Source of the DNA: Eukaryota sp. GEM-RC1
Lineage: Eukaryota
Assembly (NCBI GenBank): GCA_040285855.1
Contig: JAUFOQ010000005.1
Span: 2,170,001 to 2,234,000 of the forward strand
DNA: 64,000 nucleotides
Reading direction: 5' to 3'
The notes below the pieces were generated by a model. The model made no database searches and was not told the DNA's origin. It worked only from the letters and a program-made list of their open reading frames with translations. The position numbers and the translations under genes were made by a program. Of this stretch, positions 1 to 62,576 are shown in pieces; within the stretch, counting starts at the first letter, position 1; every line of letters begins with the position of its first letter.

Positions 1-989
1 CTACTAGGTATCGTTATCTTCACTAACACTACATTTTCCCATTTCTTTTGAAGCTGTGCAGAGAACTTATTTGAACTCATAAAGGGGGTTCAACAAACGC
101 TTGGGACCTGGATACGAGTCATTTGCATGAGACAGGAAGTGAATTTCGTGTTTTACCTTAGAAGGACAATCCCGAGCTAAATGGCCATTCTGATGACACT
201 TAAAACAAGTACCATTAGCCAGATTGCGAGATCTATCCGAGGAACGAGACTTTGTGCCAACTTGACGGGAGGGATCGCAGTTTTCGGCAGGAATCCTTGT
301 AGACTTATTCCATGAGGCTACTCTGGAACAATCAAGCAACTCATCCGTTGCAGTATCTACTAAGGTAGAGAAGTCAGGGAAGACCTCATCGCGGATCCGA
401 GCTATCAACGATTTTTGCAAGCCCATGGGAAGGATCCCCTTGGCAAATCGTGTCATAAAAGCTGAGTCAGGCAACTTCAGTCCGGAAGCCCGGCTTTTCG
501 CCTGAAGGAAACGCCTCAGGTAGCCTGACATTCGTTCACGGACATCGCCTTCTCGGACATCAACTCTAATCTCAGATATCGCAGAGTGGAATTCCTCGTA
601 CGTCGAGAACGAGGTGGTGGATCTCAGGTGATCCAAGAAAACCTCTTCAGAGGCATCAACCCCAGGCTTAGTAAGAATCAAAGACTCTAGTAAGAAGGGG
701 TCGACGAGGAGCCTTGGCGGAACAAGGTCCTTTTTCGGGGTGACGGAAGAGTACACTTTCCACTGTTGTAGGAACAGGAGTACGTCTTCTACTTTCATGG
801 AAGAAAGTGAGGGGAGAACTACGCGGGTAGAAAACATCTGCAGTGAGGGCCAATAATTATTGTTGCCGTAAGGTCAACGTTGATACAAATGGAAAGAAGA
901 AGTGTTTATTGTTGCTAGAGATCCTTAAGAATAGATGCCACGTCATCAGAGGTGAAGATATCTACTAGGTATCGTTATCTTCACTAACA
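1..989 (-). mobile_element. Gag-only miniature LTR retrotransposon, copy 1 (3' LTR cut by window start)
   Basis: 5' LTR at 861-989 reads TGTTAG...GCAACA on the minus strand (129 bp). Its first 28 nt recur exactly at 1-28. A purine-rich tract (AAAAGAAATGGGAAAATGTAG) directly precedes the 3' LTR. The internal region holds a single gag ORF. Confidence 0.88.
67..837 (-). CDS. gag: Retrotransposon Gag with CCHC zinc knuckle (256 aa)
   Basis: Contains CFKCHQNGHLARDC (CX2CX4HX4C) and a capsid-like Y..RF.....A/F.KGI segment. Homologous to the ORF at 31582-32382. No protease, RT or integrase follows. Confidence 0.85.
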   Translation of the reverse strand: MFSTRVVLPSLSSMKVEDVLLFLQQWKVYSSVTPKKDLVPPRLLVDPFLLESLILTKPGVDASEEVFLDHLRSTTSFSTYEEFHSAISEIRVDVREGDVRERMSGYLRRFLQAKSRASGLKLPDSAFMTRFAKGILPMGLQKSLIARIRDEVFPDFSTLVDTATDELLDCSRVASWNKSTRIPAENCDPSRQVGTKSRSSDRSRNLANGTCFKCHQNGHLARDCPSKVKHEIHFLSHANDSYPGPKRLLNPLYEFK

Positions 990-5563: not shown

Positions 5564-6417
5564 TTAAGATTCATAGAGTTCATCTACTCCCACTATTTCA
5601 ACTCTATGATTAACTTTCAACGCATCTGCCAAAGCTCTCACACCTTCAGCTCCAATATAATTGGAAACCAGATTAACACTTGTAACTGAAGAATTAACTT
5701 TCAACGCTGCTGCCAAAGCTCTAGCACCTTCAGCTTCAATAACATTTCCACTTAGATCAATACTGGTAATTGAAGCATTAACTTTCAACGCATCTGCCAA
5801 AGCTCTGGCACTTTCAGCTTCGATAGAGTTTCTACTTAGCTTAACACTGGTAACTGTAGTATTGGTTTTCAACGCTTCAATCATAGAAACAGCGGTGTAT
5901 TCGAACACTTCTACTTCTATTTGCTTAAGACGTGGAAATAAAGAAGAAGGATTTTTTAAAAACTCTAAATCAGAGGGTTCGCTTAGATAGAGTGTCAATC
6001 CTGTAATTATACCAGAATAATTTAGAAATTTCTCAATTTTCCAGGATCCGTAAGTGTAAGTGTCCAAAAACACAGATTGTAGACCTGTTCTAAAGAAAGA
6101 AGTAAGTGAAATTAGTTCGGGAAGGTGTTTGAGATTAGTATGAAAGGTGTGTAATTGAAAAAATACTTTAACTGCCTGGGATGAAGAATCAAGGAAGTGA
6201 TTGCTTACATAGCCAACTTGTCCAAAGAATGCAGGTAATGCTGTTTTCAAAGCAGATAGTTGATGCTTAGTTCGATCATGATTATGTTCAAGAGTATCCT
6301 TGACAAGACGTCTCAGCAAGTGGAGATGGACAAGAATCAACAAAGTCTGCCACGGACACGTTTGGAGGGAGAATCTGTGGTTGAAGACAATGCCGACAGT
6401 TCGTCACAGTTAGACAT
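5564..6417 (-). pseudogene. 28-aa RI/NLRC3-type LRR family member 1 (3 repeats; 5' frameshift)
   Basis: Has the family N-terminal domain (LLILVHLHLLRR...FFGQVGYVSNHFLDSS) and three SVTSVxLxxNxIGxEGARALAxALKVN repeats. A small deletion near 6352 disconnects the MSNCDEL start at 6417. Confidence 0.75.
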
Positions 6418-18225: not shown

Positions 18226-19800
18226 TTAAACTTCTGAACACAAATTTTCAAATAAACTTAAAAACTCCTTGGTAGAAGAACCGAAATTTCCGTACAATGA
18301 AACTGCAAAAGGCTGAAAGACGATATTATTGTGTCTTCGTGAATTCAATGCAGCAACTTGATGTCCGTACTTAGACACTTTGGCGTTCTCAGCGTCTTTC
18401 AGCGAATGATTTGAAGTATTCAAAATATTGGCAATAGCTGAAGCTTTGCAAGGATTAACGGTCGTAAAATCAACAACAATTTCTTGGCATGACAACCAAG
18501 GGCCAATAAAATCACCCCGTTTCTGAGTAGAATCAGAGTGATCTGAAAGATGAGAAAGTAATGGTTCAACTTTGCCATGGAAACCATTCGCCTTAAAAAT
18601 TTCCAAACATGTATCTTGAAGACTGTTGTGCAAAATTGAACGACAATATATGAACTTTGAACAATTGACCAAATGATGAAAGCTAGCCTTATGTTTGTTT
18701 TTACAGATACACGTGCTGTTCTGTAACAAACCAAATGGCCAAAAACCTAAAACCGATATATGGAAAACACTATACGGTTTTTCCATTCAGCCATTCTAAA
18801 CTTACGCTTCTTTTCTTTACACAATTCTTCAAAATCCTTGAAAAATTCATCACCAGCAGGACTAATAGAGTCATACTTGGAGTGTTTGAGCTTTTCAGCA
18901 GCTGTTAACGGATTAAAAGAAGAATACAATATCCTGCTTACTCAAGATTTGTTACAAACATTTACTGTAGTAAAATCCATAAATGATTGATTCGATTCAA
19001 GCCCACGGAGTATGGAGATCCCCTAATTTTTAATCAGTAAATTCATTTTCTGAAAGATAATTCAAAACTGGTTCAATTTTTAAGGGAAAATCATGTACTT
19101 TAAACATGGAATAACAAGAATCACGTACACTATCATGAATTAATGCACGTAGATGAATAAAGTAACGACAATTAATTAAATGACGAAAAACACCATTAGC
19201 TCCACAAGAGCAAGTTGAATAAATTAATAAATTTGCAGGCCGAATAGCCAAACGAAGAAGCATATTGATCATCCAAGCTTCATCAGATAGATGTAATCCA
19301 TACACCTTAGGAATTTGAGAAATAAATCCAGAAGGTCCACTATTACAAAGGTCAATTAAAAAAGCAGCGAACTCGGGACTATTAGTTTTAGCCAAGATAA
19401 TACGATTGTTACAGTCCAAGAGTTCAAACTCTTTGTCAATATATTTTGCAGCTTACATACGGCAGACGGTAGAGATGAAACATTTTTAAAGGAGTCTCCT
19501 TCAAATGAGCAGGGAACAAAGATCTTCACATTTCAGGAGCCATATATGATACCACATCTAAGCAGATTGAATCCAACGACAATTAGTGGAATTCAACAGA
19601 TTGATTCCATCCAAGGGAAATCGTTTCAAAAATTCAATTATACAATTCTTAACACCTCCTAAAAGAGCAGATTTTCTAATGATTTTTGCATGGGTGAAAC
19701 CTACCCATGCGAAGTCAGAGGAATAAAAAGCATGAAATGTAACGTTAGACTCGTTAATTTCAGCCAAATAAGAGAGAAAATTTGTTCTAATAGAATTAAA
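18226..19800 (-). pseudogene. Degenerate RLE-type (CRE/NeSL/R2-like) non-LTR retrotransposon 3' halves, two joined pieces
   Basis: CxC...HLxNC zinc motif, IHD.VRD, EP, RGD...VDFTTV, AE..K..KY, FQPFAVSLYG.FG, with many stops and frameshifts. 18747-19800 is the inverted paralog of ~31400-33600. Confidence 0.7.
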
Positions 19801-20155: not shown

Positions 20156-21523
20156 ATGGTCACACCTTGTCCTGAATCTTTGAAAAGGAGTCGTTCATCC
20201 CCTTCCAGTATCTCCTCTGCGATGTCAAACTGTGGCGAACTGTCTGTATTGTCTTCATCCACAGTTTCTCCCTCTAAACGTGTCCATGTTCAGCAGACTC
20301 TATTGATTCTTATCCACCTTCATTTGCTGAGACGTCTACTAAAGCTTACTCTTGAAAATATTCATAATCGAACTAATCTTGAACTCACTGCTTTGAAAAC
20401 AGCATTACCTACATTCTTTGGACAAGTTGGTTATGTAAGTAATCACTTCCTTGATTCTTCATTTCAAGCAGTTAAAGTCTATTTTCAATTACACACCTTT
20501 CATGCTGATCTTAAACACCTACCTGAACTAGTTTCACTTGCTTCTTTCTTTGGAGGAGATCTACAATCTGTTTTCCTGGACACTTACGAAATCTTAGAAG
20601 TTGAGAAGTGTCTTAATTATTCTGATATAATTACAGGATTGAGAATCAAACTAGATGAACTCGCTGATTTAGAGTTTCTAATCAATTCTTCTTCTCTATT
20701 TACACGTCTTAAGCAACTAGCAGTATCAGTGTTCCAAAACCATTCTGTTTCTATGTTATTGATTGAAGCTTTGAAAACCAATACTACAGTTACAAGTGTT
20801 GATCTAGGTAGCAACTCTATTGAAGATGAAGATGCCAGAGCTTTGGCAGAGGTGTTGAAAATTAATACTTCAGTTACAGGCATTGATCTTCGTAACAACT
20901 CTATTGGAGATGAAGGTGCCAGAGCTTTGGCAGAGGCGTTAAAAGTTAATGTTTCAGTTACAAGTGTTAATCTGTGGGATAACTCTATTGGATATGAAGG
21001 TGCCAGAGCTTTGGCAGAGGCGTTAAAAGTTAATGCTTCAGTTACAAGTGTTGTACTGCGGGACAACTTCATTGGAGATGAAGGTGCTGAAGCTTTGGCA
21101 GAGGCGTTGAAAGTTAATTCTTTTGTTCTAAGTGTTAATCTGGAGGACAACTCTATCGGAGCTGAAGGTGCCAGAGCTTTGGCAGAGGCGTTGAAAGTTA
21201 ATTCTTCTGTTACAAGTGTTAATCTGTGTCTCAACTGTATTGGAGATGAAGGTGCTGAAGCTTTGGCAGAGGCGTTGAAAGTTAATTCTTCTGTTACAAG
21301 TGTTAATCTTCAGGATAACTCTATTGGAAATGAAGGTGTTAGAGCTTTGGTAGATGCATTAAAAGTCAATGCCTCAGTTACGAGTGTTAATCTGAGTTTC
21401 AACTCTATTGGAAATGAAGGTGTTAGAGCTTTGGCAGTGGCTATAAAAGTTAATCATAGAGTTGAAATAGAGGGAGTAGAACAACTCAATAGGTTAATTA
21501 GTTCTAAAATTAGTACAAAATAG
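20156..21523 (+). CDS. 28-aa LRR family member 3 (8 repeats)
   Basis: Intact 455-aa ORF: family N-terminal domain plus 84-bp repeats. Confidence 0.88.
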   Translation: MVTPCPESLKRSRSSPSSISSAMSNCGELSVLSSSTVSPSKRVHVQQTLLILIHLHLLRRLLKLTLENIHNRTNLELTALKTALPTFFGQVGYVSNHFLDSSFQAVKVYFQLHTFHADLKHLPELVSLASFFGGDLQSVFLDTYEILEVEKCLNYSDIITGLRIKLDELADLEFLINSSSLFTRLKQLAVSVFQNHSVSMLLIEALKTNTTVTSVDLGSNSIEDEDARALAEVLKINTSVTGIDLRNNSIGDEGARALAEALKVNVSVTSVNLWDNSIGYEGARALAEALKVNASVTSVVLRDNFIGDEGAEALAEALKVNSFVLSVNLEDNSIGAEGARALAEALKVNSSVTSVNLCLNCIGDEGAEALAEALKVNSSVTSVNLQDNSIGNEGVRALVDALKVNASVTSVNLSFNSIGNEGVRALAVAIKVNHRVEIEGVEQLNRLISSKISTK

Positions 21524-22468
21524 ATTTTCATTTCAAGTTAATATATATCTGTTGAAGTGAAGTGTGTTAAGGTCATCAAGAGCTGATGCTTTTGAAAATT
21601 TGAATTGTTATATGATGACCTTCGTGACGTTCAATACATCAGTTGAATCCAACATCCAATCAAAAGTGATGAATTCCCAGTTCATGGTGATATTCTAAAC
21701 AACAAATAACTAAAGGGCACAATTTCAATAAATATTTTTTTGATAAACAGACTCAATTTCCATGCTTGGTATATATAAGACTTAAAACATTTCAGTTTCA
21801 CACTGAAGAAAACTCATAAATTGTCCATCAAGTCAACATGTATTATTCCCAATTTGTTCTTAATTAATGATGATTTAGCTATCGATTTAGACGTTCAGTC
21901 TCTGTATATCTTCTGAAGCTGAAACCTTGGCCATTCCAGTTCTAAATGAACTCAAATCATTGGGGTAAATTAGGATAAAACCAACACGTCATTATGACAG
22001 AGTATACAATGGGATTCACAAAAGTAGGCCAAAATTCAAATTGTTTGAGAAATTATCCACGTTTGGTGTGAAAGCTAACGTTGCAAAACGTAATCTTTTA
22101 TGAAGTCGTTTGGATTTAATTTTAGTATTAATCATTTGTGTTTACAATTTCATAGTTTTGTAGGAATTTTACCTTAATGGGTACCGAATATAGTTGTTTA
22201 TTTGTTTATATATTGCTTTGAAGATGTTGAAATTCTGCCCTTTAATGGATTTGTTGTTTAGGATATCACCATGAACTGTGAATTCATCACTTTTGATTGG
22301 ATGTTGGATTCAACTGATGTATTGAACGTCACCAAGGTCATCAAATAACAATTCAAATTTTCAAAACCATCAGAAACACTTCTCTTGACTACCTTAACAC
22401 ACTTCATTTCAACAGATATACACCAACTGAAATGAAAATCTATTTTATACTAATTTTAGAACTAATTA
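21494..22468. repeat. ~230-bp inverted repeat formed by shared 3' flanks of convergent LRR genes 3 and 4
   Basis: 21494-21728 is the near reverse complement of ~22228-22468, e.g. GACGTTCAATACATCAGTTGAATCCAACATCCAATCAAAAGTGATGAATTC. Confidence 0.85.
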
Positions 22469-24049
22469 GGACCTATTGAGTTGTTCTACTCCCACTATTT
22501 TAAGTTTAGGATTAAATTTTAACGCATCTGCCAAAGCTCTGACACCTTCATCTTCAAGAGAGTTGTCCCGCAGATTAATACTTGAAACTGTAGTGTTAAC
22601 TTTTAACGCCTCTGCTAAAGCTCTGGCACCGTCATCTCCAATAGAGTTATCCTCCAGATCAATACTTGTAACTGAAGCATTCACTTTCAACGCCTCTGCT
22701 AAAGCTCTGGCACCTTCATCACCAATAGAGTTATACTCCAGATCAATACTTGTAACTGAAGCATTCACTTTCAACGCCTCTGCTAAAGCTCTGGCACCTT
22801 CATCACCAATAGAGTTATACTCCAGATCAATACTTGTAACTGAAGCATTCACTTTCAACGCCTCTGCCAAAGCTCTGGCACCTTCAACCCCAATGGAGTT
22901 GGACTTCAGATTAACACTTGTAACAGAAGCATTAACTTTCAACGCCTCTGCCAAAGCTCGGGCACCTTCAGCTCCAATAGAGTTGTAACTCAGATTAACA
23001 CTTGTAACAGAAACATTAACTTTCAACGCCTCTGCCAAAGCTCGGGCACCTTCAGCTCCAATAGAGTTGTAACTCAGATTAACACTTGTAACAGAAACAT
23101 TAACTTTCAACGCCTCTGCCAAAACTCTGGCACCTTCATTTCTGATAGAGTTGTCCCTCAGATCAACACTGGTAACTGTAGTATTGGTTTTCAACGCATC
23201 TGCCAAAACTCTGCCACCTTCATCTCTGATAGAGTTGTCCCTCAGATTAACACTTGTTACAGAAGCATTAACTTTCAACGCATCTGCCAAAGCTTCGGCG
23301 CCTTCATCTCCAATAGAGTTGAAACTCAAATCAACACTTGTAACTGAAGCATTAACTTTCAACGCATCTGCCAAAGCTCGGGCACCTTCAGCTCCAATAT
23401 AGTTGCATCCCAGATTAACACTTGTAACTGAAGTATTGGTATTCAACGCTTCAATCAATAACATAGAAACTGAGCTGCGTCGTCTCGCAACTTCTACTTC
23501 TAGCTGCTTAAGACGCGGAAATAAAGCAGAAGAATTGTTTAGAAACTCTAACTCAGAGGGTTCCATTAGTACAATTCTCAATCCTGCAATTATACCAGAA
23601 TAATTCAGAAATTTCTCAATTTCTAAAATTCCGTAAACGTCCAAGAAAACAGATTGTAGATCCACTCCAAAGAAAGAAGCAAGTAAAATCAGTTTGGGGA
23701 AGTCTTCATCATCAGCACGAAAGGTGTGTAATTGAAAATAGACTTTGACTGCTTGTAACGAAGAATCAAGGAAGTGATGACTTACATAACCTACTTGTCC
23801 AAAGAATGTAGGTAAAACTGTTTTCAAACCAGTGAGTTGAGCATTAGTTCGATCATCAATATTTTCGAGAGAGTGTTTGAGAAGACGTCTCAGCAAGTGA
23901 AGATGGATGAGAACCAACAAGGTCTGGTGAACATGGACACGTTTAAAGGGATGATGTGCGGATGAAGACAATACCGACAGTTCGCCACAGTTAGACATCA
24001 CAGAGGAACGGCTCCTCTTCAACAAAGGTTCAGGATGAGGTGTGATCAT
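22466..24049 (-). CDS. 28-aa LRR family member 4 (11 repeats)
   Basis: Intact 527-aa ORF containing adjacent identical repeats (NLSYN x2, DLEYN x2). Confidence 0.88.
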   Translation of the reverse strand: MITPHPEPLLKRSRSSVMSNCGELSVLSSSAHHPFKRVHVHQTLLVLIHLHLLRRLLKHSLENIDDRTNAQLTGLKTVLPTFFGQVGYVSHHFLDSSLQAVKVYFQLHTFRADDEDFPKLILLASFFGVDLQSVFLDVYGILEIEKFLNYSGIIAGLRIVLMEPSELEFLNNSSALFPRLKQLEVEVARRRSSVSMLLIEALNTNTSVTSVNLGCNYIGAEGARALADALKVNASVTSVDLSFNSIGDEGAEALADALKVNASVTSVNLRDNSIRDEGGRVLADALKTNTTVTSVDLRDNSIRNEGARVLAEALKVNVSVTSVNLSYNSIGAEGARALAEALKVNVSVTSVNLSYNSIGAEGARALAEALKVNASVTSVNLKSNSIGVEGARALAEALKVNASVTSIDLEYNSIGDEGARALAEALKVNASVTSIDLEYNSIGDEGARALAEALKVNASVTSIDLEDNSIGDDGARALAEALKVNTTVSSINLRDNSLEDEGVRALADALKFNPKLKIVGVEQLNRS

Positions 24050-29965: not shown

Positions 29966-31092
29966 TCATCTACTATCATATATGCCTTGATGTGAATACT
30001 TTACATCTACTTTGGTATTAACTTTCAATGCATCTACCAAAGCTTCGGCACCTTCATATCTAATAGAGTTATACTCCAGATCAACACTGGTAATTGCAGA
30101 ATTAACTTTCAACGCCTCTGCCAAAGCTTCGGCACCTTCATCTCCAATAGAGTTTAAACTCAAATCAACACTTGTAACTGAAGCATTAACTTTCAACGCA
30201 TCTGCCAAAGCTCTAGCACCTTCATTTCCGATAGAGTTGAATTTAAGATCAACACTGGTAACTGAAGCATTCACTTTCAACGCCTCTGCAAAAGCTCTAG
30301 CACCTTCAATTCCGATAGAGTTGAGGTTAAGATCAACACTGGTAACTGAAGCATTCACTTTCAACGCCTCTGCCAAAGCTCTGGCACCTTCATATCCAAT
30401 AGAGTTATCCCACAGATTAACACTTGTAATTGAAGTACTAACTTTCAACGCTTCAATCAATAACATAGAAACAGAGGTGCATTCGAACACTTCTACTTCT
30501 AGCTGCTTAAGACGTGGAAACAAAGAAGAAGAATTGTTTAGAAACTCTAAATCAGAGGGTTCCATTAGTTTGATTCTCAATCCTGTAATTACACCAGAAT
30601 AATTAAGACACTTCTCAATTTCTAAGCTTTCGTAAGTGTGCAGGAAAACAGATCCCAGATCTCCTCCAAAGAAAGAAGCAAGAAAAATGAGTTCGGGAAG
30701 GTGTTTAAGATCAGCATGAAAGGTGTGTAATTGAAAAACACTTTAACTGCTTGAAATGAAGAATCAAGGAAGTGACTACTTACATAACCAACTTGTCCAA
30801 AGAATGTAGGTAATGCTGTTTTCAAAGCAGTGAGTTCAAGATTAGTTCGATTATGATTATTTCTTCTTCTAAGATAGGGCCTCTCTGCGAGAGTACGCTC
30901 GAAAGCAAAGAGACGTCTCAGCAAATGAAGGTGGATAAGAATCAATAAAGTCTGCTGAACATGGACACGTTTAGAGGGGAGTATGTGTGGTTAAAGACAA
31001 TACAGACAGTTTATCACAGTTTGACATCGCAGAGGAGATACTGGAAGGGGATGAACGGCTCTTTTCAAAGATTCAGGACCAGGTGTGACCAT
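29966..31092 (-). pseudogene. 28-aa LRR family member 5 (5 repeats; frameshifts)
   Basis: MVTPGPESLKR start at 31092. Pieces lie in three ORFs (30991-31245, 30622-30945, 29966-30580). Confidence 0.75.
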
Positions 31093-31444
31093 TGATGCTG
31101 AAGAAATGGGGTTTTTCTGCATTCTCTCAAACTTACCACTGTCAACTTCTATTAAAACCATGAACCATTCGAACACTCTAGTAACTAAAGCAGCATTTTC
31201 AAGGTCTCCTTCAACTTTTTTTTGCCTTTGTTGGGTAGAATTCATTCAATCAATTACTGCTCTCCAAGCAAAGAAAATAATTAATCGACGTAATTGGGTA
31301 TAAAACATGGAACGCAAATGTTGTCCCGTGGTGTACCGTGCCGTACTTTACTTTTGAACGACTAAAATATATTATTACTATTCCCTTACTGAAATATTTA
31401 ACAATAAACTTAATTCTATTAGAACAAATTTTCTCTCTAACTGG

Positions 31445-32503
31445 TGTTAGTGAAGATAGCGATACCTAGTAGATATCTTCACATCTGATGACGTGTCACT
31501 TAGTCTTAAGGATTTCTTTATACAATAAACTCTTCTTTCTTATCAACGTTGACCTTACGGCAACAATAATTATTGTTGCCTATGACTTTCTCATCTACTA
31601 ACCCTAGAAAGTTCCGTGATCTTGCTTTTTTTGTCCCGCCAAAGCTTGCAACCTTCACAAGGAACGAGATTCAAACCTTCCTCGAGGAAGTTGATGTGTA
31701 TACGTCTATTACAGACAAGAAGCATCAGGTAACCCTCCGGCTTATGCTGGATCCGGTTTTGCTCAGGTCGCTCCATCTCTCCGAGCCTGACCTTGAAGCT
31801 TCTGATGAGGCTCTCCTTGAGTATCTCAAACGGCAGGTACAATTCTCAACTTACGAGCAGTTCAACCAGACGATTTCTGGTTTGCGTATGGATGTACGCA
31901 TTTGTGAACCTCGTGAGCGGATGAACGAGTATCTGCGCAGGTTTGTGAGAATTCGGGATCGAGCTGAATCTCTCAGCTTACCAGATAAGGTTCTGGTCAA
32001 GCGTTTTGCCAGAGGGATTTGTCCCAAAGGTCTGTCCAGTTCGTTGATTTCGCGTATTAACGATGAACTCATAACTTCTCTCCCTGAAGTTATTTCCGTT
32101 GCTTCTGATGAACTTCTTGATCTTTCACGAGTTTCGTCGTGGTTAAAGAAAGACAGTTCTGTGCTTGACTCTCTTCCAGCCGTGGAATTTCGTAACCAAC
32201 AGCGTTCTAATGACAGAAAACGCAACAGTTGCTTTAAATGCCATAGGTCTGGCCACAAAGCCAATGAATGCTCTTATGCAGCCAAAGTGGAGTCCATCAA
32301 CTCCATCATCGTAGATGAACCTAAACATACTTTTGACAACACTTGTTATACAAACCCTATAAAAAAAGCTGAGAAGGGGTAGTGTTAGTGAAGATAGCGA
32401 TACCTAGTAGATATCTTCACATCTGATGACGTGTCACTTAGTCTTAAGGATTTCTTTATACAATAAACTCTTCTTTCTTATCAACGTTGACCTTACAGCA
32501 ACA
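31445..32503 (+). mobile_element. Complete Gag-only miniature LTR retrotransposon, copy 2 (1059 bp)
   Basis: 121-bp LTRs at 31445-31565 and 32383-32503 (TGTTAG...GCAACA, one mismatch seen). 4-bp TSD CTGG at 31441-31444 and 32504-32507. PPT GAGAAGGGGTAG. AATAAA in the LTR. Confidence 0.93.
31582..32382 (+). CDS. gag: Retrotransposon Gag with CCHC zinc knuckle (266 aa)
   Basis: Contains CFKCHRSGHKANEC. The ORF fills the internal region and its TAG abuts the 3' LTR. Confidence 0.85.
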   Translation: MTFSSTNPRKFRDLAFFVPPKLATFTRNEIQTFLEEVDVYTSITDKKHQVTLRLMLDPVLLRSLHLSEPDLEASDEALLEYLKRQVQFSTYEQFNQTISGLRMDVRICEPRERMNEYLRRFVRIRDRAESLSLPDKVLVKRFARGICPKGLSSSLISRINDELITSLPEVISVASDELLDLSRVSSWLKKDSSVLDSLPAVEFRNQQRSNDRKRNSCFKCHRSGHKANECSYAAKVESINSIIVDEPKHTFDNTCYTNPIKKAEKG

Positions 32504-32507
32504 CTGG

Positions 32508-33735
32508 ACTGAAACTAATGAGTCTAAGATTCCATTTCATGCTTTTTATTCCTCTGACTTCGCATGAGTAGGTTTCACTCATGCAAGAATCATTAGAAAA
32601 TCTGCTCTTTTAGGAGGTGTTGAGATTTTTATGTTTGAATTTTTGAAACGGTTTCCCTTGGATGGAATCAGTCTGTTGAATTGCACTAATTGCCGTTGGA
32701 TTCAATCTGCTAAAGATTTGGTATCATCTTTGTCTCCTGAAATGTGGGAATCTTTGTTCCCTGCTCATTTGAAGGAGACTCCTTTAAAAATGTTTCATCT
32801 CTACTGTCTGCTGTATGTAAACTGTAAATTAACCGGACAAGGGAGTTTGAACTCTTGGACTTTAATAATCATATTAGCTTGGCTAAAACTTATAGTCCCG
32901 AGTTCACTGCTTTTTTTATTTGACCTTTGTAAAAGTGGACCTTCTGGATTTATTTCTCAAATTCCTATGGTGTTTGGATTACATCTATCTGATGAAGCTT
33001 GGATGATCAATATGCGTCTTCGTTTGGCTATTTGGCCTGTACATTTATCAAACTATTCAACTTGCTCTGGTGGAGCTAATGGAGTTTTCCGTCATTTAAT
33101 TAATTGTCGTTATTTTATTCATCTAAGTGCAGTAATTCATGATGGTGTACGTGATTCTTGTTATTCCATGTTTAAAGCACACGGTTTTCACTCTAAAGTT
33201 GAACCAGTTTTGAATCATCTTTCAGATAATGAGTTTACTGATCAAAAAGAGGTGATCTCCATACTCCGTGGCTTAAATCGAGTCAATCATTAATGGATTT
33301 TACGACAGTACCATAGATGTTTGTAACAAATCTTGTGTTAGTAGGATATTAAATTCTTCTTTTAATCCGTTAACAGCTGCAGGAAAGCTCAAACACTCCA
33401 AGTATGACTCTCAAGTAGAAGAATTAAATAGAAACTCATATTCCAAATTTGTGTTTCAACCTTTTGCTGTTTCTCTTTTTGGATCTATCAGTCCTGCTGG
33501 TGATCAATTTTTCAAGGATTTCGAAGAATTGTGTGAAGAAAAAAAGCGTAAGTTTAGAATGGCTCAATGGAAAAACGGTATAGTGTTTTCCATATATCGG
33601 AATATGCCTTTCTATTTCTCTCGAATAATTGAGAAATTGTACAAGTTTGGTGTGAAGGTCAATGTTGATAAACGTAATCTTTTACCGGGTGGTGATGAAG
33701 TCGTTTGGATTTATTCTTAATATTATTTGTTGAGA
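32508..33735 (+). pseudogene. Degenerate RLE-type non-LTR retrotransposon 3' half (host of the LTR insertion)
   Basis: ORFs 32631-33293 and 33451-33720 carry HLINC, IHDGVRD, VEP and FQPFAVSLFGSISP. Confidence 0.7.
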
Positions 33736-35308: not shown

Positions 35309-35495
35309 TGTGTCGTTTGTCATATATGATTTATAAAGACATTTGATTGTAATTAAATGAATAAAATTAGGAATTACTTATCGTTTTAAAATTCTGTTAG
35401 AAATCGTCGTCTGACTCAGATCAAGTTGTATCTTGATGGTAGTTCCAATTTCAGTCGTTACTATAATATAATAGAACATCCCCTGGAGTAGCAGA

Positions 35496-38400
35496 ATGAA
35501 TCTCCCATTTAAGACCATTTGTTCCTCAGATGAACTGACTGATTACCCTCTTCTAACATTACACTGCCAACAGTAATTATTGGTGTTGATTAATTGTCAC
35601 TTGTTGAGTCATCACTTGAAGTCTTCTCTAGTAGTCTTCTCTTGTAGTCAAAAAATCATCAAAACTATCGTCAACATTCTCTCTGTCGTTTGGGAAACAA
35701 ACTTGTTGGATTTATTAAAAAGTTTGGCTTTGTAAGTCAACTATTGTTTGATTCTTCATTGACAGCAGTGCAACTGTTTCTTGGAACAACTACTATTCCC
35801 GTTTTCCCAAAAGACATTGTTCTACTTTCTGCAATGACTTCATTCTTTAAAGCAAAGGTTTATTCTGTTTACCTGATTGTAAATGACTTTCTTGTAGATA
35901 AAGATATTATTGAGTTTACTACTAATATAACTCATTTAACATCAGTAGTTCTTCTTTTGTACATTACTTACTTAACCATTCGTCTTCTCTTTTCCTTCCA
36001 CGTCTGCGAGTTCTTGACATTCCCAGGAAGTCATCTTTTCAGGGAGATACTTTTACTGCACTTTGTAAGTCTTTAATGGGTAATAGAACAATTTTAGAGT
36101 TAAATCTTGGTCTGCACTCACTTACTTCTACTGAAGCTGCCTCGCTGGCAGAGGTGTTTTATTCTAACAACACCCTGAGAACAATTTCATTTAGCTCTGA
36201 CTACTCAATTAATAATAAAGTATCTTTGATTCTATTTACCGCAATTTCAAATAATTCAAATATTTCAAAAATTCATTTGAATAATCTTCGAATCCAGTGT
36301 TCAAGCGATCTTATTCCACTTTTCAAAAGTTTAAGTCTTAGAAGTATTACTCTTCCTGGTGGTTGTCTTGATTCTGCTTTATTCAATGGACTTGAGAACA
36401 ACTCATCTATTAGAGAACTTTCTGTTAAGTTCGCTTACTTTAAGGGTGAAGACCTTGGGAAAGTGTTAAAATTCAACACTGCTTTAAGAAAACTTGAATT
36501 AATATTCTGTAATGTTGAACTCTCAACAATTTTTAAATCTCTTATATCTAATACTTCACTACTAGAGTTGTCAATTGTTTTACCTGATGTCAGATCAATG
36601 ACCAGACAGTTAAGTTGTTATTAGAAATGGTCCAACACAATATTTCCTTGTGCTTAGTCTCCAAGATTTACGGGTTGAACTAAATCAGTTTAAACACATT
36701 CTGAAATCTCTCGAATTGAATTCTGTACTGAAGAAAGTCTGTTTTCACTCCTTAAATTTAAAATTTCTACTCTCCTTGTTTGAACCAATGTTTAGTGAAA
36801 AGGTACGATCTCGGATTGATCTGACTCCTAATTTAATTGATATTCACAGGGGCGTGTTTTATTTCTCACCAAGTCCACCAAATTATTCAGTAACTCACAT
36901 ATACATTTGTTCTCGAATAACTGCTACCGAACATTCGTTATTACAGTCGATTTTACAGTGTTTTACCATCACAGAACTTTTTTTTAAAAGGATGTAGTTT
37001 TACTCACGAATCAATCCCCGTTTTATGTCATTTAATAAGGAATAATAACTGCTTGACTTCTGTTGACTTCAGTGATTGTAGTCTAGATGATGACGTGATC
37101 TTATGTATCCTCAATGCATGTCAGTCCAATTGTTATTTGAAAAGGATCAATCTAAGCAATACCAACATTGGTCTCAAAAGTCTTTTACATATCTTTAATT
37201 TGATTCCTACTCACAAATTAACCCTTAATATTCATGTTTCTCCGTATACGATTGAAACTGATAAAGGTTTGTTCTGTTTTTCTCCTGAAAGTTCTTTCAA
37301 TGTTCGTTCACGATCACTATTGAGGAAATCTAATCTAAAACTTCTTTTGAAGTGTAGTTCTATCGAAGAGCTGGCAATTAAGAGTTGTATCTTTTTGATA
37401 GAACAATCCCTGTTATTTGTGATTTAATTAGGGTCAATAAGTCATTGACTTCTGTCAGCTTCAGTGACTGTGGATTAAATCATCTAGATTTCTGTCGCTT
37501 TAGTTATTTTACCGATGTTGTTTTCTCAGACTTACTCAAAGCCCTACATTCTCTTTCTTTTCTAAACAACAATAATTTCAACAATTTTCACATCGGATTT
37601 ATGAGTCTTTTAGCTCTTTTTAAGCTATTTTCCACTAGAACACTCATTCCAACAATTCAAGTTTCTCCTCATTTTATTGATATTGAAAATAGTGTTTTAC
37701 GATTTCTACCAGAAAGAGCTACGGAAATCCAATCTTCAGAAGTTTTAGCTTTACAGTCTTTGCTGACGTGTTTCAGTATCAAAGATCTTGCTATTAGAGG
37801 GTGTTCATTTATTTACGAAGACATGGTTGGATTGTATGATTCAGTCAGCATCAATCAGGAATTGACTTCTGTTGACTTCAGTGATTGATTTAGTTTGATT
37901 GTTCAAAACATAATGGTCCTTTTAGAAACAGTTGTACTCCCACATTGGATGACACTTTTTCAAACTTAATCAAATCGTTGTGTAACTCTTCTTTGAACGC
38001 GGTTAGCTTTCGAAATTGTTCCATTGGAATCAACACTCTTTTGTCTGTTTATGAAACAAAAGTGATGACGTCATCAGTCAGCAAACCCACAACTATTGAT
38101 GTTTTCCCTCATTTTGTTGATTTTTCACTTGCACTTATTCGTTATCAGAATGAGATTGAAAATCAGGAAATAATTTCACTTTTAAATTCGTTAAGGTCAA
38201 ACCTTCCTCTTAAACGTGTTGATTGCCTTGGATTGAAAAGTTCAAGACTAGCAGGACTAATCACCTTATTTGAAATTCTTTCTATCAACAATTCAGTGAT
38301 CGATCTTGATATTTCTCCTTCTTTTGTTGGTGTTGACAATGGCTTGTTTTGTTATTCACCAGAGAGTTTTACTCAATTAACAACTGACGATGTTGTATCT

Positions 38401-38577
38401 CTGCGGTGTTTTTTGACGTCCTTTAAAATCCAAGAGCTTATTTTAAAAAACTGCGGGTTTACGGGCGAAGCAATCAAAGTTTTGAATGACTTTATCAAGC
38501 TCGATAGTCCATTGACTTCTCTTGACCTCAATGAATGTGATCTATCTGAGGATGTTTTTAGAGCACTTGGTAAGTAA
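35496..38577 (+). pseudogene. Large divergent LRR gene, multiply disrupted
   Basis: Consecutive ORFs with LTSVDFSDC, LRKLELIFC and SP..ID...G.F.FSP repeats. The N-terminal region (FGFVSQLLFDSSLTAV) resembles the 28-aa LRR family N-domain. Most breaks are shared with the inverted copy. Confidence 0.7.
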
Positions 38578-39034
38578 GTTATAGATTGATTAATTGAATT
38601 CTTTCAATCATTATTTCTGATTTTATAATGATTAGTTTTAAGTTCCAACTTTCTTTTTATTGTGATCTAATACCAGAAATACATCAAGTGTAAGGACAGT
38701 TTCTGATAGTGTTGCTAATTAGATATCTACACAAAAGTTATGTATAGTGATATGTTGCCCTATTAACAATCATTGCATATATTCCTATTCAAACTGTTGT
38801 TTTTATTACATTCCTTCCTCTTCAAACACATTAGACTCCTACTTAGCCTTACAGAATACTTATTTAAACAGATGCTATCAAGTTTATCCATTTGAAGTCC
38901 ACTTGAAAAGGAACAACATTTGTCTTTACTGGAATTGTGGTTTAAAACAACAACAAGAGACATCATGAGAGACGTCAACACATGCAACACCACCTTGACT
39001 TAACCCAAAGAACTTTATCTTCCCATTTAAATTT

Positions 39035-41285
39035 GGGATTTATGCAGATTTCATCACTAATATACATTAATTGCATTTTTCATCTAATATTACTTTATTT
39101 TGCAATCATTGTTTCAACTCATAAAACCTATTTCGTTGGACAGTTTCTCCTGTCATGACCAACTTGGTCACAATTTCTACACTTACGTTGTCGTGGTCTT
39201 GGTGCTGAACCATCTACTACTGTTGGTATCATACTGCTGGCACCTTGCTGCAACACAATCCACTCTGGGCAGTTTCTTCTGTCGTGCCTAATAATTCTAC
39301 AATGACCACATCTACGTGGGGAGAGAGGCATTGCTTCCTGATTCTCTTCCGTTGCTGCTGCGTCAGGTTCTACTTCTTCACTGTCGCTACTCGCATCCTT
39401 CTCATCGAATCTCTTTTGATTAAAGCGTTTAGTACGTGAGTACTTGTCCTTACGTGAAATTGGCGGACGACCTGGCATTACTGTATCTAAAGGAGGAAAC
39501 ACATCACTTTCTAGTTCTTCGATATTCCTTCTATAGTCGATTGGATAAAATTCGCCATCATACGTCTTCTTAAAATTAGTAACTAAATAATAGGGAGACA
39601 CTAAAGATCTGCGGTGAATTCTAACACGTCTCGAAACTGACATTACGTGAATACATGGCACATCATGTTGTTTCCAGAATCCGCAACTGCACGTTTTGTA
39701 CTTCAGATCCACAGAAAACACAAATTCGTTTTCTCTCACGGAATACAAATTGTCGGAGAACGTGGTTACTTCTAAACTGCGAGCTCTCAATATCGACGGC
39801 AACAAATACTCTTCAACATCATCAACGAATTCTCCATGCATCTTCATTGATTCATCTTTTCTTCTTCTGAACAAATGAGTCATTGCTTCAAAGATACCGT
39901 TAACCATTGAAGTCACTGGCAAAGAGCGAACTGGAAGAAGCCATGCATTTAAGGATTCAATGATATTGGAGGTGAGTTGTCCATATCTATTCCCTTCAAA
40001 GTGTACTGTCGACCAAGATTCTTTCGGAGCTGACTCTTCCAAATAAGTATAACCCACTGGGCACTGGATTTGAAGGAGCTGCCAATAGCGGTCAAATTCG
40101 TTTAACGTACTCGCTCTTGCACATTTCCAAAACAATTTCATTGCTTTCTTTCCACCTCTGGACGAGAGATTGTCACTGAGATGTTTACAGCACACAGAGT
40201 GGTAGGTTTCGTCACCAAAAACTTCGACCAGCGTACGGGATATGGCTGGATTTCTGTCACTAATAAATACTGTTTTGTCGTTGATTGCAAAATTGTCATT
40301 CAAATTCTCCAAAAAGCTTCTCCAATTTATTACATTTTCCGTTCGAGTAATTTCAAAAGCTATAGGAAAGAAATGTCCGTTGGCATCAATGCCAGCAGCA
40401 GCCAACAATATTCCCTTGTATTTGGACCTCAGATGAGTTCCATCTATCACGATAACAGGCCTTAAAAACTCAAATCCTTTCACAAGAGGTTGAAAAGTAA
40501 AGAAAAAGCGCTCAAATGTGCCATCAGGTGCAACATTCAGCTTAAAAGGAGAGTCAGGATTAGTGGAGTTGAGACTTTGGAAAAGGGTTCCAGAAAGGTG
40601 TATGAGGTATCTAAAGAACCATAAAGTAGTTCGTTAGTGGCCTCTAGAGCTCGACAGGCTTTACTCGGACTTATATCAATAAAGTACTTGGTTTTCAGCT
40701 TCCTAGCAAATACAGATGGACTGGTAATCTTTCCACCTCTTACTTCTTCTGCCATTAAAATGGCACAGATTTGTTTAGGCAAGGTCGTAAAACATAAGGA
40801 TTGGCAGGAAGCAATGTGATCGACAAACTTTCTTATTTCCCATTCGTGGGTGTCTGTGTCCTGAAAACAGTGGATGTAACAGGGACAAGGTGTAGAGGAG
40901 CCACATCGTATATCCCAACGGTTCTGGTTTTTCTGAGTTATGTCGAAGCTTTTATCACTCGAAAGGAACCAAGAGTAAACATCATGCTGCAAGTGTTGGA
41001 TGTTTGTATAAGAATGACCTTGTTGAAGAGTTGTATTAGTTGTAGTCATTAGTAAAAGAGTATTGATGTTAAATGAATTGTTATTTACTTATGTGATGTA
41101 AATTGACGATTTCCCTAGGTTTTATGAGTTGAAACAATGATTGCAAAATAAAGTAATATTAGATGAAAAATGCAATTAATGTATATTAGTGATGAAATCT
41201 GCATAAATCCCTAATGTATATTAGTGATGAAATCTGCATAAATCCCATTGTTATTTACTTATGTGATGTAAATTGACGATTTCCC
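39035..41285 (-). mobile_element. MULE/MuDR-type transposon copy 1 (39035-41115) plus stacked terminal fragments
   Basis: GGG...CCC imperfect TIRs. 9-bp TSD TTTAAATTT at 39026-39034 and 41286-41294. Confidence 0.92.
39128..41049 (-). CDS. MULE transposase (~640 aa; 1-bp slip at A-run near 40581)
   Basis: IVIDGTH, FISDRN, CCKH, TSNIIES (DDE core), SWIM finger CSCGFWKQHDVPCIH, and two CX2CX3HX4C knuckles. Confidence 0.92.
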
Positions 41286-41315
41286 TTTAAATTTTGGATT
41301 CCCACGATATCCAAC

Positions 41316-43541
41316 ATGCACCTGTTTCTACTCTTTATAGGCTTGATATGCTCTGTTTCATCCAACGTTGCTGATATTGAGTCTGAAACACCGTCTATCC
41401 CTCATGTTACGATTACATCGGATCCCACCGATATCGTATCTCAACTCCTTCTTAATAAGCGAAGTCAAGTTCTCACGGACAAGCTCATTGTATTCCACGA
41501 TCACAATTATCCTTGTCATTCTGCTTTCCTCTCCTCCTTCAGTTCAGTTCTGAGAGAGAAACTCTTGGAAGCCGATTCTGAAGTAAACTTCCCTGAACGA
41601 GACTCTATCATTCCCAATGCCGCTCTTCTCTTCCAAATCCTCGATTACTGCTATGGAGAACCCTTCGAGCTCACGCTTAATAACATGGGCATCGTGCTTA
41701 CCTTGTGTTCCTCCCTGCAGCTCCCCTCCTTAGCAAATCCCATCCATAAGATTATTTCTGAAGGATTTTCTAAGCCAGTTAGCCTTCAGTTGAAACCCGC
41801 AGAAGTTGTCCAACAACTCTACTCAAGTGTACAACGTGACGTGGTGATGAATTACAAGGAAAAGTCTTTCGCTATAAGCTCTCTGACGTTGATTTCAGTT
41901 TCAGAATATTTTAAAAATCTGTTACCTTTGAATTTCTCTCATTCTGAAGAAATGATTTTTGCATATGATCAAGAATTTCCCGATGTTTCAGCTCCAAATT
42001 TTGAAATCTTTGTCAATTATTTCCACGGGAAGTCGTTTGTTCTTGATGTTGATAACGTTATTGATTTTTATCAATTGACAGTCTTTTTTCAAGTAGAAAA
42101 AGTTAAACAAGCTTGTAATTCATTTGTTTCTACGCTTTCTTCTGCTGAAGATATTCTCTTTTGCTCAAAACTATTTCGGAACGGAACATTTTAAATTTTT
42201 TAGAAGAAAATTTTGAAACTTTTGTCCGACTTAAAAACAGTTCCAACCATGATTCTGTTTTTCCTTTACCTCTTCCTTTTATTTCACTTTTGATTGAAGA
42301 AGTTCAAACTTCTTGGTTGTTGAAATGTTTAACTTTGTCTGTCAATTCCGATGTTTTCAAAAATGATTACTCTACGTTAACTCAAATATTTGAAAAATGA
42401 TTGTCACAGATCAAAATATTCATGATACTTACATTTGTCTACAACCTTTATTTAATCAACAGTATCTACATGAATTTCTTTTAAGCTGGACAATGAAAAA
42501 AGCTTTTCCAGGGATTACTGATGTTACTACAATTCCTGATGAATGGTTTTTAGGTGGGTTATCTCAATGGTGTTTTTACGAGTGGGAGAAGAAAATTTTA
42601 AATATTGACTTCTTTGTTCAGAATTTCTCACTTGTCATTGATGAAAAGATTTGATGGCTATTGAAAATTATCCTTTTCTTACACCTGAAATTCTCAAAAA
42701 TTTAAAATCCATTCTACCTCCGTCGTATGACTTATTTCTAGTTAAATGTTTGGTTAAATCATGGAAGAACACAAAACTGTGGACTGTTGAAGATTTTGAG
42801 GACGTGTTTTTTAATTATGATTTTCAGTCTGGGGGAGATGGTGTTGAAATTTTAAATATTCTTTCAAACCTTTTGACTGACTCACGACTTACCAATCGAC
42901 TTACTGTCAATTTATTGAACCATTCTTTGGGTGCTCTTAATTATCACCACAAAGAATTAAAAGCAATGAAGCAACAAAACGTCATTTTAACTAACGAAGT
43001 CAAGTTATTAAAAGAATCTATTCTACCTTGGCTTAAAAGACTGCAAGAAAGAGAGGAAGAACGTCTACAGTTTGAAGCTAGTATTGGTACTTTTAATCCT
43101 GATAATTGTTGCTCGTGTTTAACGTTGTTTGAAAACAATCATGTTGTTAAAACAGAACGTTATAATAATGGTCACAACAGTTTTGTAGAAGTTAATCTTC
43201 CCGACAATCATTCAGTTAAATTTACTAGATTGGATGACATTGATGACGGTCATACTGATTCAATTGGTTGGAAAGATAGCAGCGGTCTTTCAAACAATGT
43301 TATGGCTTTCCCTGGACTTTTTACTAGAGGTGATGGTAGTAGAGGATCTTTCACACCTCCAAGGCCAAAGTTTCCTCCAATTACTAAAGGAGAATCAGTT
43401 GTGGTAAGTTTTGCTTATGGTAAGGCACACTTTAAACCGTCTACTTGTACAACTACTTTTAGTGTCGAAATACCTACTAATTTAATTTTTGGAATGTCCA
43501 TTCCTTGGGAAAATCATGAATGGAAAGTAGAACGTGTTTGA
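41316..43541 (+). CDS. Signal-peptide-like + tandem BTB/POZ-like protein, paralog B (frameshifts at homopolymers)
   Basis: Highly similar to paralog A up to NYHHKELK, then carries a distinct but homologous C-terminal domain. Confidence 0.72.
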
Positions 43542-43755
43542 TTAGATTGAATACTTATTGTAAAATTTAAGTCGGGTTTTTTCAAGATAGCTACTCAAAT
43601 AAATCACATTTGTCAATCAAATCTAAAAAACGTTAAACATTGAAAAACGGTATTGATGAAATGCACTGTGATCGGAAATGGAAAAACATTGAACGATTTT
43701 ACCAAATGATCAGGTACTTCTCGTTTTTGTTATACAAAAGGTGGTTATTCACAGA

Positions 43756-43842
43756 AGTGTGGTTACGCTAGTATTTTTGAAAAAACTATTATTTTTAAAT
43801 AATTTAATTTAAATTTTTGAAAAAAACTAGCGTAACCACACT
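43756..43842. repeat. Perfect 17-bp inverted repeat around an AT-rich spacer (possible micro-MITE)
   Basis: AGTGTGGTTACGCTAGT (43756-43772) and ACTAGCGTAACCACACT (43826-43842). Confidence 0.75.
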
Positions 43843-45678
43843 GGTGAAATGATGTTGTTCAAATCTTACTACCATCAATCTGTCAGGAAATTGTATCAGT
43901 AATGAAGGTGCGTTAGAATTGATGGAATTTTTATAATTTGAATGTTCAATTGCAACGGTTAATCTTCAAAGTAATCATTTTGATTCTGGAAACAATGGAA
44001 TTTATTAGAAAATTCTCATTGAATAGGATATTTGTTTAATACAATATGTTCTTAGATTGGCTTTTTCAATCATCATTTTCGATCATCGAATATACAACCT
44101 TATACTTGTGGATTTGATTCGATTAATTAATGATACAGTAAAACTCTATACCACTAAATTTGTTCCAAAACTAGCCAATGTTGGATTTATTTGACTCTAT
44201 TCCAAAGTTGGTCAATCAAAATTTCTTTGATGGGTTATCTTCATTGGTTTCAACAACATGCGATAACCATATTATACTTTGAGCATTACAACACACGGAA
44301 AATTAGTCAAGTTTTCACTGGTGAAACTAGGTTCTAGCATTACAGTATTCTTGAAGTACAGTTTTTGTATTTTAATAAAAAATTATTTAAATAGGTTACT
44401 TTTTATCCAAACAAAGTGTACTTAAGTGTAAATGAAATCACAAAACTTCTTTAATACAATATGTTCTTAGATTGGTTTTTTTAACTTATAAGTGAGAATT
44501 TTTCAAGAAAGTTTTTGAAAAGATCAGAGATCAATCAGAACATCACCATAATTTAACTTTAAAAGAAGAGAACTGATAATTAATATAATTTATTCAAAGA
44601 TTGAAAAGAATCAGAATAAAACAAAACTAAATAATGTACTTACTTAAACCAAGGAATGACATTCCTGTCCTTAGGGAAGTACCCATCGTCAGACAAGAAA
44701 ACTTCATCGTCCTTCAAAGGTCTAAGGGCATAGAGACCAACCAGCTTTTCCCCGTTCACAAACAAATCAAAATATATCAAAATTGGTACCAGTCAAAAAT
44801 TCTAAAAATATTAATAATTCTAAAAGTGTGAATAATTCCAGTAAATCGTCGTTCAATGATCAATTGTCGTACATGTGGTTATGCCATCACCTTTTTCAAG
44901 GAAAACGTCACCACCTTTTTTCAAGGTGCTAGCATAAACACACTCACTGAATCAAGCAAAAATGTTCCTAGAGTGTCTTGAAAATATACTTTGTCAAAGT
45001 ATTAACTCCAATTGTACTCTTTTGGTAATATGTTTAACCTTTAAATAACTTTAACTTTGCCTTTTTAAAGACGGTACGGTATAGCACGCGACCAGGTAAA
45101 AAACGAAGACAGTAACTTAACACAACCGTATTATCTAATCCTTTCCTGATTTTGATTTTGAATATTTTCAAACATAGATTCCCCATTATAATCCATAAAC
45201 GGACGGTTCAAGACAAATTTTAATTATTGTAAAATAAAATCTATCATTTGCTAACAAGAACCCAGACACGTTGTTCATTTTAAGAAATTGCATATGGTGA
45301 TCTCACTCCACAAACTTACTGTGAATATTGTGTCACTCTCAACCAAGAACTCAACACTGACTGTTAAATCGATTTGGATGTGAAGGTCACGTTGAATCGG
45401 TACATTATTGAGATATTCAATGATGTGACACGTCATCAAAAAGCACAATTCGTTACGATAAAGTCGGTCAATGATATACACTAGCATTTATTAAATGCAA
45501 CAACATGTCATTTTGAGGACAAGCATCAGAATGTCTGCAGGAATGATTCATGATGAAAGCAATAGATTCACCACCAATACTGATCTTCCGGAGATTTCGA
45601 ATGGTTCATGGTGTTAATATCAAGTTGAGGATAAAAGACAGTTGGACGTTTGAAAAGAAGACATTTCTTGATTCATCA

Positions 45679-46600
45679 ATGACTACACCACGTCCTAAAC
45701 ATTTGTTGAAAAGGAGTCGCTCATCCCTTCCAAGCTTCTCCTCCGTGATGTCTAACTGTGACGAACTGTCTGTATTGCCTTCAACCACAGATTCTCCCTC
45801 TAAACGTGTCCATGTTCAGCAGACTTTGTTGATTCTGATCCATCTCCACTTGCTTAGACGTTTTCTCAAGGATACTCTTGAAAACAATCACGATCGAACT
45901 AAGCATCAACTATCTGCTTTGAAAAGAACATTATCTGCATTCTTTGGACAAGTTGGCTATGTAAGTAATCACTTCCTTGATTCTTCATTCCAAGCAGTTA
46001 AAGTGTTTTTTCAATTACACACCTTTCATGCTGATCTTGAACACCTTCATAAACTAATTCCACTTGCTTCTTTCTTTGGAGCAGATCTACAATCTGTTTT
46101 CTTGCACCCTGCTGGAAATTTAGAAATTGAGAAGTTTCTTAATTATTCTGGTATAATTACAGGATTGAGAATCGAACTAAGGGAACCCTCTGATTTAGAG
46201 TTTCTAAACAATTCTTCTTCTTTATTTCCACGTCTTAAGCAACTAGAATTAAAAGTAACGAGACGAAACGCCTCTGTTTCTATGTTATTGATTGAAGCGT
46301 TGAAAACCAATACTACGGTTACAAGTGTTAATCTAGGTAGCAACTCTATTGGAGATGTAGGTGCCAGAGCTTTGGCAGAGGCGTTAATAGTTAATTCTTG
46401 TGTAACAAGTGTTGGTCTTCAATCTAACTCTATTGGAGATGAAGGTGCCAGAGCTTTGGCAGAGGCGTTAATAGTTAATTCTTGTGTAACAAGTGTTGGT
46501 CTTCAATCTAACTCTATTGGAGATGAAGGTGTCAGAGCTTTGGCAGATGCGTTGAAAGTTAATGCTTCAGTTACAAGTGTTGATTTGAGTTTAAACTCTA
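45679..46600 (+). pseudogene. 28-aa LRR family member 6, truncated in repeat 4 by a MULE end
   Basis: MTTPRPKH start. The frame ...VDLSLNS runs directly into GGGAAATCGTC at 46601. Confidence 0.85.
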
Positions 46601-62443: not shown

Positions 62444-62576
62444 TCTGCTACTCCAGGGGATGTTCTATTATATTATAGTAACGACTGAAATTGGAACTAC
62501 CATCAAGAGCAGCATGTGTGTGGTAGAAAGTTTTCAACTTGAAACTAAATCTTCTTTCAATCGTCAAACTCCTCCC

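Follow-up and report, generated by a model that had tools for sequence, protein, structure and literature searches.

The window, a stretch of 64,000 nucleotides from contig JAUFOQ010000005.1 of Eukaryota sp. GEM-RC1, contains two short LTR retroelements in which gag is the only gene. We refer to them as element 1 and element 2, the latter running from 989 to 1 and belonging to a subfamily termed B. The following features were located:

31441..31444 (+): target-site duplication of element 1, left copy, CTGG, from flank comparison and the empty site
31445..31565 (+): 5' LTR of element 1, 121 bp, TG..CA
31559..31580 (+): palindrome of 22 nt in element 1, covering the LTR end together with the primer-site position
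31582..32382 (+): gag ORF of element 1, 266 aa
32361..32379 (+): polypurine tract of element 1, overlapping the end of gag, then TAG and 3' LTR
32383..32503 (+): 3' LTR of element 1, 121 bp, one mismatch versus the 5' LTR
32504..32507 (+): target-site duplication of element 1, right copy, CTGG
19760..19780 (-): empty site within the paralogous segment 19275-20249
861..989 (-): 5' LTR of element 2, 129 bp
67..837 (-): gag ORF of element 2, 256 aa, Pfam zf-CCHC E 7e-6
34..49 (-): polypurine tract of element 2
1..28 (-): first 28 nt of the 3' LTR of element 2, ending at the window edge

Element 1 comprises 1,059 bp in total, and its interior of 817 bp carries one ORF of 801 bp. The LTRs start with TGTTAG, end with CAACA and are 99.2% identical (match E 2e-58), the sole difference residing at position 115 (G/A); identity stops at position 122. 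The gag gene starts 16 nt past the 5' LTR and its stop codon TAG is the last triplet ahead of the 3' LTR, so that the purine tract (17 of 19 positions are purines) comes to lie within the reading frame. Element 1 thus approaches the smallest LTR replicon that can still encode Gag. When the element and one copy of CTGG are removed, the flanks align gaplessly across the junction to the minus-strand paralogous segment at ~19764-19776, flank and paralog being 83.8% identical over 938 flank bases. A target duplication of 5 bp does not fit. LTRs, duplication and gag layout together exceed chance by far. The original prediction had described 121-bp TG..CA LTRs with one mismatch, a 4-bp duplication, a polypurine tract, a gag stop abutting the 3' LTR and an empty site near 19765 on the minus strand, and all of these were recovered upon re-measurement. 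With one mismatch in 121-bp LTRs and an empty paralogous site, element 1 is young, and the CTGG duplication likewise agrees with the recent mobility that had been proposed.

The second member at positions 1-989 had been described as having a clearly related LTR, a strongly diverged but intact Gag and no pol, and this description is borne out. The interior of element 2 amounts to 832 bp, the 28 nucleotides of its 3' LTR that lie in the window match its own 5' LTR exactly, and its target duplication falls outside the window. The LTRs of elements 1 and 2 are identical in 109 of 121 aligned columns (90%, or 84.5% with gaps counted) and the 5' LTRs have in common a 9-bp inverted repeat near the start and an AATAAA at ~+80, while the two Gag proteins share 44% identity across 225 aa.

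Other parts of the window are also repetitive. Near-identical copies of a MULE (Mutator-like) transposase with SWIM and CCHC domains are found at 38906-58859, several of them in tandem at ~2.09-kb spacing, in both orientations and many frameshifted. A ~3-kb inverted duplication (35431-38450 and 59491-62508) that is 100% identical lies on either side of this cluster. The 570-aa ORF at 14083-15795 on the minus strand gave no Pfam match at E 0.01; judged by eye, its product resembles a hAT transposase with an N-terminal zinc finger. Leucine-rich-repeat genes built from 84-nt units reside at 5525-6000, 16250-17527, 20156-21523, 22466-24049, 29966-30565 and 45550-46635 (Pfam LRR_6 for the one tested), with BTB-domain genes interspersed at 27524 and 41316. 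Two paralogous ORFs (44% over 78 aa) are situated beside the empty and the filled site, at 18226-18786 on the minus strand and at 32631-33293 on the plus strand. Both encode a cysteine/histidine stretch and then a further motif that presumably resembles the endonuclease end of non-LTR retroelements; Pfam gave no match for the ORF at 18226-18786. Finally, a Tel2-like gene is present at 9797-11776 on the plus strand (Pfam Telomere_reg-2, E 4e-10).

The Gag protein of element 1 is made up of a capsid region (~aa 16-189), a CCHC knuckle (aa 217-230) and a short tail in which an NP[L/I] motif is conserved. Pfam reports just a weak match to Retrotrans_gag (E 0.009). The AlphaFold model reached a mean pLDDT of 80 on the basis of a 38-sequence alignment, as compared to 42 with 13 sequences. 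When this model was compared with 48,161 solved chains by VIA-align, the best 20 rows were all capsid domains of retrotransposon, retroviral or Arc/PNMA/PEG10 origin. The top row is a copia capsid (rmsd 7.0, 152 aligned) with a Z of 11.5, which falls short of the value of about 13 below which the tool advises caution with helical proteins; the C-lobe of PEG10 was matched with Z 9.8 (rmsd 3.2, 84 aligned). Foldseek returned no match at E<=0.001, its top ranks being PNMA2, PEG10 and Ty3 capsids, all with E above 0.001, and the Atlas neighbours of Gag are Retrotrans_gag/Ty3_capsid/zf-CCHC clusters at 0.93-0.97. Gag is therefore predicted to adopt the two-lobed fold of retroviral-type capsids followed by a CCHC knuckle. 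The fold does not tell gypsy from copia, the best Z belonging to a copia capsid. A frameshift signal considered at the NPL codons was dropped by eye, because it is in the wrong frame in element 2.

A comparison of the two gag genes over 220 aligned codons revealed saturated silent sites (pS 0.81) and a dN of 0.54. Codon positions 1, 2 and 3 are 54, 69 and 31% identical, and four-fold sites agree in 16 of 47 cases (34%) with a random expectation of 26%. Saturated silent sites, a dN of 0.54 and an LTR identity of 90% together show that purifying selection acts on Gag and that the elements are not fresh deletions; the dN/dS comparison concerns one gag pair, and part of the signal may reflect selection in autonomous ancestors. 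The LTRs are far more alike than neutral sites, be it through constraint or through recombination in shared particles. Such LTR identity at saturated silent sites would be expected if shared enzymes read them.

Where else does the family occur? The first protein search yielded five matches, all from Eukaryota sp. GEM-RC1 (91-97%) and TZLM1-RC, and the closest named relatives (97%) stem from Skoliomonas sp. GEM-RC1. Skoliomonas sp. GEMRC, or a species close to it, is accordingly the most probable host. GEM-RC and TZLM3-RCL have been described as Skoliomonas isolates, i.e. free-living metamonads (PMC11316075), and TZLM1-RC is treated here, by inference, as S. litria. Three short-Gag protein clusters were obtained for GEM-RC1. 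Those containing the Gags of elements 1 and 2 have at least 4 and 11 members and a third one at least 6, while the short-Gag clusters of TZLM1-RC and TZLM3-RCL have at least 3, 6, 6 and 10, all of these counts being lower bounds from gene models, not DNA, that were built after repeat masking. Diverged gag-only subfamilies are thus present in three Skoliomonas species, with copies dispersed over several contigs; outside the window, the gag-only status is that of protein models. None of the 21 members of the three GEM-RC1 clusters (183-303 aa) carries Pol, in agreement with the multi-copy gag-only family that had been proposed. This absence is informative because the clustering does unite short Gags with long Gag-Pols, as seen in two Pol-bearing families in which P0049 groups with P0172 and P0104 with P0242. 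By the same token, the 251-aa Gag P0104 sits in a Pol-bearing cluster, so that a short gene model alone is no proof of a gag-only element.

The C-terminal ends of these proteins contain further information. An NP[L/I/F] motif near the C-terminus is present in 42 of 83 Gag-like proteins from all three species, one of which is a truncated Gag-protease model. In 15 of the 83, again from all three species, C-terminal peptides (GSV.., VVL..) correspond to the junction of purine tract, TAG and TGTT read in another frame; the other 68 do not have such a read-through peptide. Four TZLM3-RCL models whose locus tags lie next to each other on a single contig (P0035, P0194, P0195 and P0197) continue for ~110 nt through the 3' LTR into GNNNYWP, the translation of the LTR-end and primer-site sequence of element 2. 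Read in this way, by back-translation and not from DNA, the junction peptides suggest that the primer site is conserved and that gag-only elements form tandem arrays in TZLM3-RCL. Searches elsewhere were negative: a motif scan of JGI metagenome DNA gave seven loci, none with Gag, Pol or LTR, and viral contigs queried with P0090 and the Gag alignment gave no matches.

Longer, pol-bearing partners were found at the protein level. When 1.84 billion proteins were searched with a profile, long proteins with a homologous N-terminal Gag were retrieved, among them P0038 (E 9e-31), which had been missed by a weaker search for longer relatives that returned only two zinc-knuckle helicases from 7,994 candidates. 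P0038 (1148 aa) and P0172 (1177 aa), the latter reached by way of its cluster, are the candidate helpers in GEM-RC1. Both are single-ORF Gag-Pol models in which Gag precedes PR-RT-RNaseH-IN with the motifs DTGA, YIDD and DNG.EF. The best solved match of the candidate helper Pol is Ty3 Gag-Pol (E 1e-55), and in a tree of 49 rows the seven Pols from Skoliomonas group as a single clade (SH-aLRT 100). The Gag of element 1 is hence a homologue of the N-terminal part of Ty3/gypsy-type (Metaviridae) polyproteins with the order Gag-PR-RT-RNaseH-IN, from which the element differs by the lack of pol. With 22-36% identity between their Gags and those in the window, none of the candidate helpers is a recent parent. 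The Pol models of GEM-RC1 look incomplete, P0038 and P0172 ending at the integrase core and P0242 in RNase H. For TZLM3-RCL, no Pol was present among the 45 matches listed (7,990 candidates scored). Two metagenome polyproteins, P0090 and P0111, combine a homologous Gag with a Pfam Chromo domain, the mark of the chromovirus lineage, which was detected behind the integrase in none of the seven Skoliomonas Pol models; P0200 matches the C-terminal region of P0090/P0111 as far as the first strand of the chromodomain (E 4e-10, search with seven sequences). The TZLM1-RC models P0199 and P0201 contain an extra region of several hundred residues between RNase H and integrase without Pfam match, and an LNPF/LNSF sequence ahead of the protease that is like the tail motif of the gag-only proteins. 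Two TZLM1-RC Pol models end with EREGSVSCG and KRRQC-stop, both compatible with the same LTR start, and these two peptides hint at LTRs that may be shared by helpers and gag-only elements. A complex prediction for the capsid domains of element 1 and P0038, folded without alignments, gave a score of 0.00.

The minus-strand primer site was not part of the original prediction. A TGG at the LTR end is the signature of tRNA priming (PMC5006619) and such a primer-binding site is absent in elements 1 and 2; the 64-kb window contains no tRNA genes. Instead, both elements have in common a palindrome with the 12-nt core CA/ATAATTATTG, in which CA represents the final bases of the LTR and which extends to 22 nt in element 1, with self-duplexes of -36 and -20 kcal/mol. 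Self-priming of the Tf1 type requires a complement in the 5' LTR (PMC4600332, PMC6317226). It was rejected here as the best helices have 6-8 bp and were equalled by 48-107 of 300 shuffles, and no helix that extends to primer positions +1 to +3 is longer than 4 bp. Element 1 thus resembles Tf1/sushi elements in the apparent absence of a tRNA-type site and differs from them in an LTR complement no better than chance (PMC4600332, PMC6317226). The fold z-score of the 5' region is -2.5 for element 1 and +0.5 for element 2, which speaks against a conserved 5' structure beyond two hairpins. From its sequence, the site would fit neither tRNA-3'-end nor Tf1-type priming. An internal tRNA fragment or another host RNA may serve as the primer, which we put forward tentatively and at somewhat less than even chances. 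Pairing of two packaged RNAs via the palindrome, followed by cleavage, is speculation and rather unlikely, and priming by still other means also appears doubtful.

Taking these observations together, element 1 is most likely a young copy of a multi-copy, non-autonomous, Ty3/gypsy-derived element that encodes only Gag, packages its own RNA and borrows PR, RT and IN from full-length Gag-Pols in the same Skoliomonas-type host. RNA would be made from the 5' LTR and Gag produced in cis, with the knuckle binding the RNA from which it was translated. We propose that gag is retained because Gag made in cis favours its own RNA in packaging. The Gag-Pol of a helper would join the same particle, the minus strand would be primed at the conserved ATAATTATTG by a primer that is not the 3' end of a tRNA, and the plus strand at the purine tract. 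The integrase of the helper would then insert the product, leaving a 4-bp duplication.

The original prediction had seen in these elements one old pol-less lineage that keeps Gag under selection and obtains Pol in trans. Selection on Gag, candidate Pol-bearing elements in the same species and the lack of pol in the members retrieved all agree with this idea; the notion of a single lineage is less secure. Subfamily B groups across GEM-RC1 and TZLM1-RC with support of 95/92 and 96/94, so that the gag-only mode of life is old in the genus, subfamily B at least predating the split of the two species, and may have arisen repeatedly. Gag trees of 26 and 19 rows, from which fragments, near-copies, P0199, P0201 and five partial Gags were left out, need 2-4 changes between the gag-only and the Pol-bearing state (three in the best trees), and a single gag-only clade appears in 0 of 200 bootstrap trees, yet AU tests do not reject such a clade (p-AU 0.133 and 0.149). 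The Pol-bearing Gags have long branches (1.6-3.3, as compared to 0.1-1.0 for gag-only proteins) and their placement is unsure, while the common C-terminal tail and the stop-at-LTR layout favour one deletion event. Several origins from different Gag-Pol ancestors, a scenario that would leave the mechanism unchanged and affect only its history, are therefore conceivable, if on balance doubtful.

It is also possible, albeit improbable, that the gag-only elements are partners rather than parasites and supply surplus Gag in trans to single-frame Gag-Pol elements that need it, as if the short gag transcripts known from plant copia elements had become a replicon of their own. P0038 and P0172 are each modelled as one ORF, although such models may conceal frameshifts or introns. 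The gag-only proteins sit on the shorter branches, there are 23 gag-only models in GEM-RC1 versus 7 Pol-family models, and downstream of the knuckle gag-only proteins have a segment similar to V-[NH]-x-[IVL], which we assume to be a putative cleavage site and which resembles the Gag-protease junction of Gag-Pols. Particles have been proposed to need surplus Gag from short transcripts (PMC9784723). On the other hand, the autonomous elements own an intact-looking Gag, and ~30% identity between the Gags leaves mixed lattices uncertain. An even bolder picture is a metamonad two-part system, in which an old, genus-wide capsid-only lineage of ~1.1 kb would give particles to single-ORF Gag-Pols and take enzymes in return, both priming without tRNA from an LTR-end palindrome that pairs RNAs; we regard this as a long shot.

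Defective LTR elements usually originate by internal deletion (PMC4350172), and full-length copies that are unannotated or repeat-masked could escape protein collections. Still, it is very improbable that the two elements are sporadic, dead-end deletion products of an active full-length element. Apart from the complete lack of Pol in the three clusters, the nearest Pol-bearing Gags are 31% (subfamily A) and 36% (subfamily B) identical, as opposed to 42-77% for other gag-only Gags in the nearer subfamilies, the same short tail recurs in three species, and the insertion of element 1 is recent and comes with a target duplication of its own. Retention of gag by the host as a restriction factor or Arc-like protein, with the LTRs as remnants, is hardly tenable given nearly identical LTRs, a fresh duplication, an empty paralog and dispersed copies, even if the closest folds include the domesticated capsids PEG10, Arc and Drt2 and a Pol-less Gag could disturb autonomous particles.

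Among known elements, the non-autonomous one preferred here comes closest to the plant TR-GAGs that had been named as precedent. The comparison confirms a shared layout with TG..CA LTRs, a polypurine tract, a single knuckle-bearing Gag ORF, no pol, less than 4 kb and multiple copies (PMC4350172), and a closely similar autonomous partner was likewise not found for TR-GAG1 (PMC4350172). The working mode would also be like that of plant TR-GAGs (PMC4350172, PMC8704663, PMC13570524, PMC9784723), one of which has been seen to mobilise in Arabidopsis ddm1 (PMC8704663). Element 1, with 1.06 kb and 121-bp LTRs, is smaller than TR-GAG1 (~2.5 kb, 485-bp LTRs), its duplication at the one site available has 4 bp instead of the 5 bp shared by TR-GAGs, and TR-GAG1 has a tRNA-Leu primer site (PMC4350172), a type apparently missing in element 1. 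Furthermore, its Gag ORF overlaps the purine tract, its host is a metamonad and its Ty3/gypsy origin lies separately in Skoliomonas. We file element 1 as TR-GAG-like and not as a plant TR-GAG, from which it is set apart by size, 4-bp duplication, primer site, host lineage and persistence across species. TRIMs have no coding capacity and are ruled out by an intact Gag under purifying selection. Skipper of Dictyostelium has neither a TGG primer site, as in element 1, nor an LTR complement; its primer position is a polypyrimidine stretch and that of element 1 an AT-rich palindrome (PMC5006619). Gag-only LTR elements beyond plants are known from the brown alga Ectocarpus, where the families are copia-derived and LTR elements span 3.9-14.5 kb (PMC4350172, PMC12477816). 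The view that the family is unusual for a protist-like genome consequently needs to be restricted in light of Ectocarpus (PMC4350172, PMC12477816) and holds with respect to metamonads: in the literature searched, which mostly excludes subscription papers, we found no description of these elements or of any metamonad LTR element, and LTR elements are not mentioned in the main text or in six supplements of the Skoliomonas genome paper (PMC11316075).

The findings point to a clade of LTR retrotransposons in metamonads. Being near-minimal, element 1 marks out the signals needed in cis. The question whether elements of this kind live as parasites or donate capsids dates back to the description of TR-GAGs and has stood open ever since (PMC4350172, PMC8704663). 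Several subfamilies in which silent sites are saturated while Gag and LTRs are conserved, found in three cultured species whose genomes were sequenced with long reads, make this question one that can be tested by comparison.
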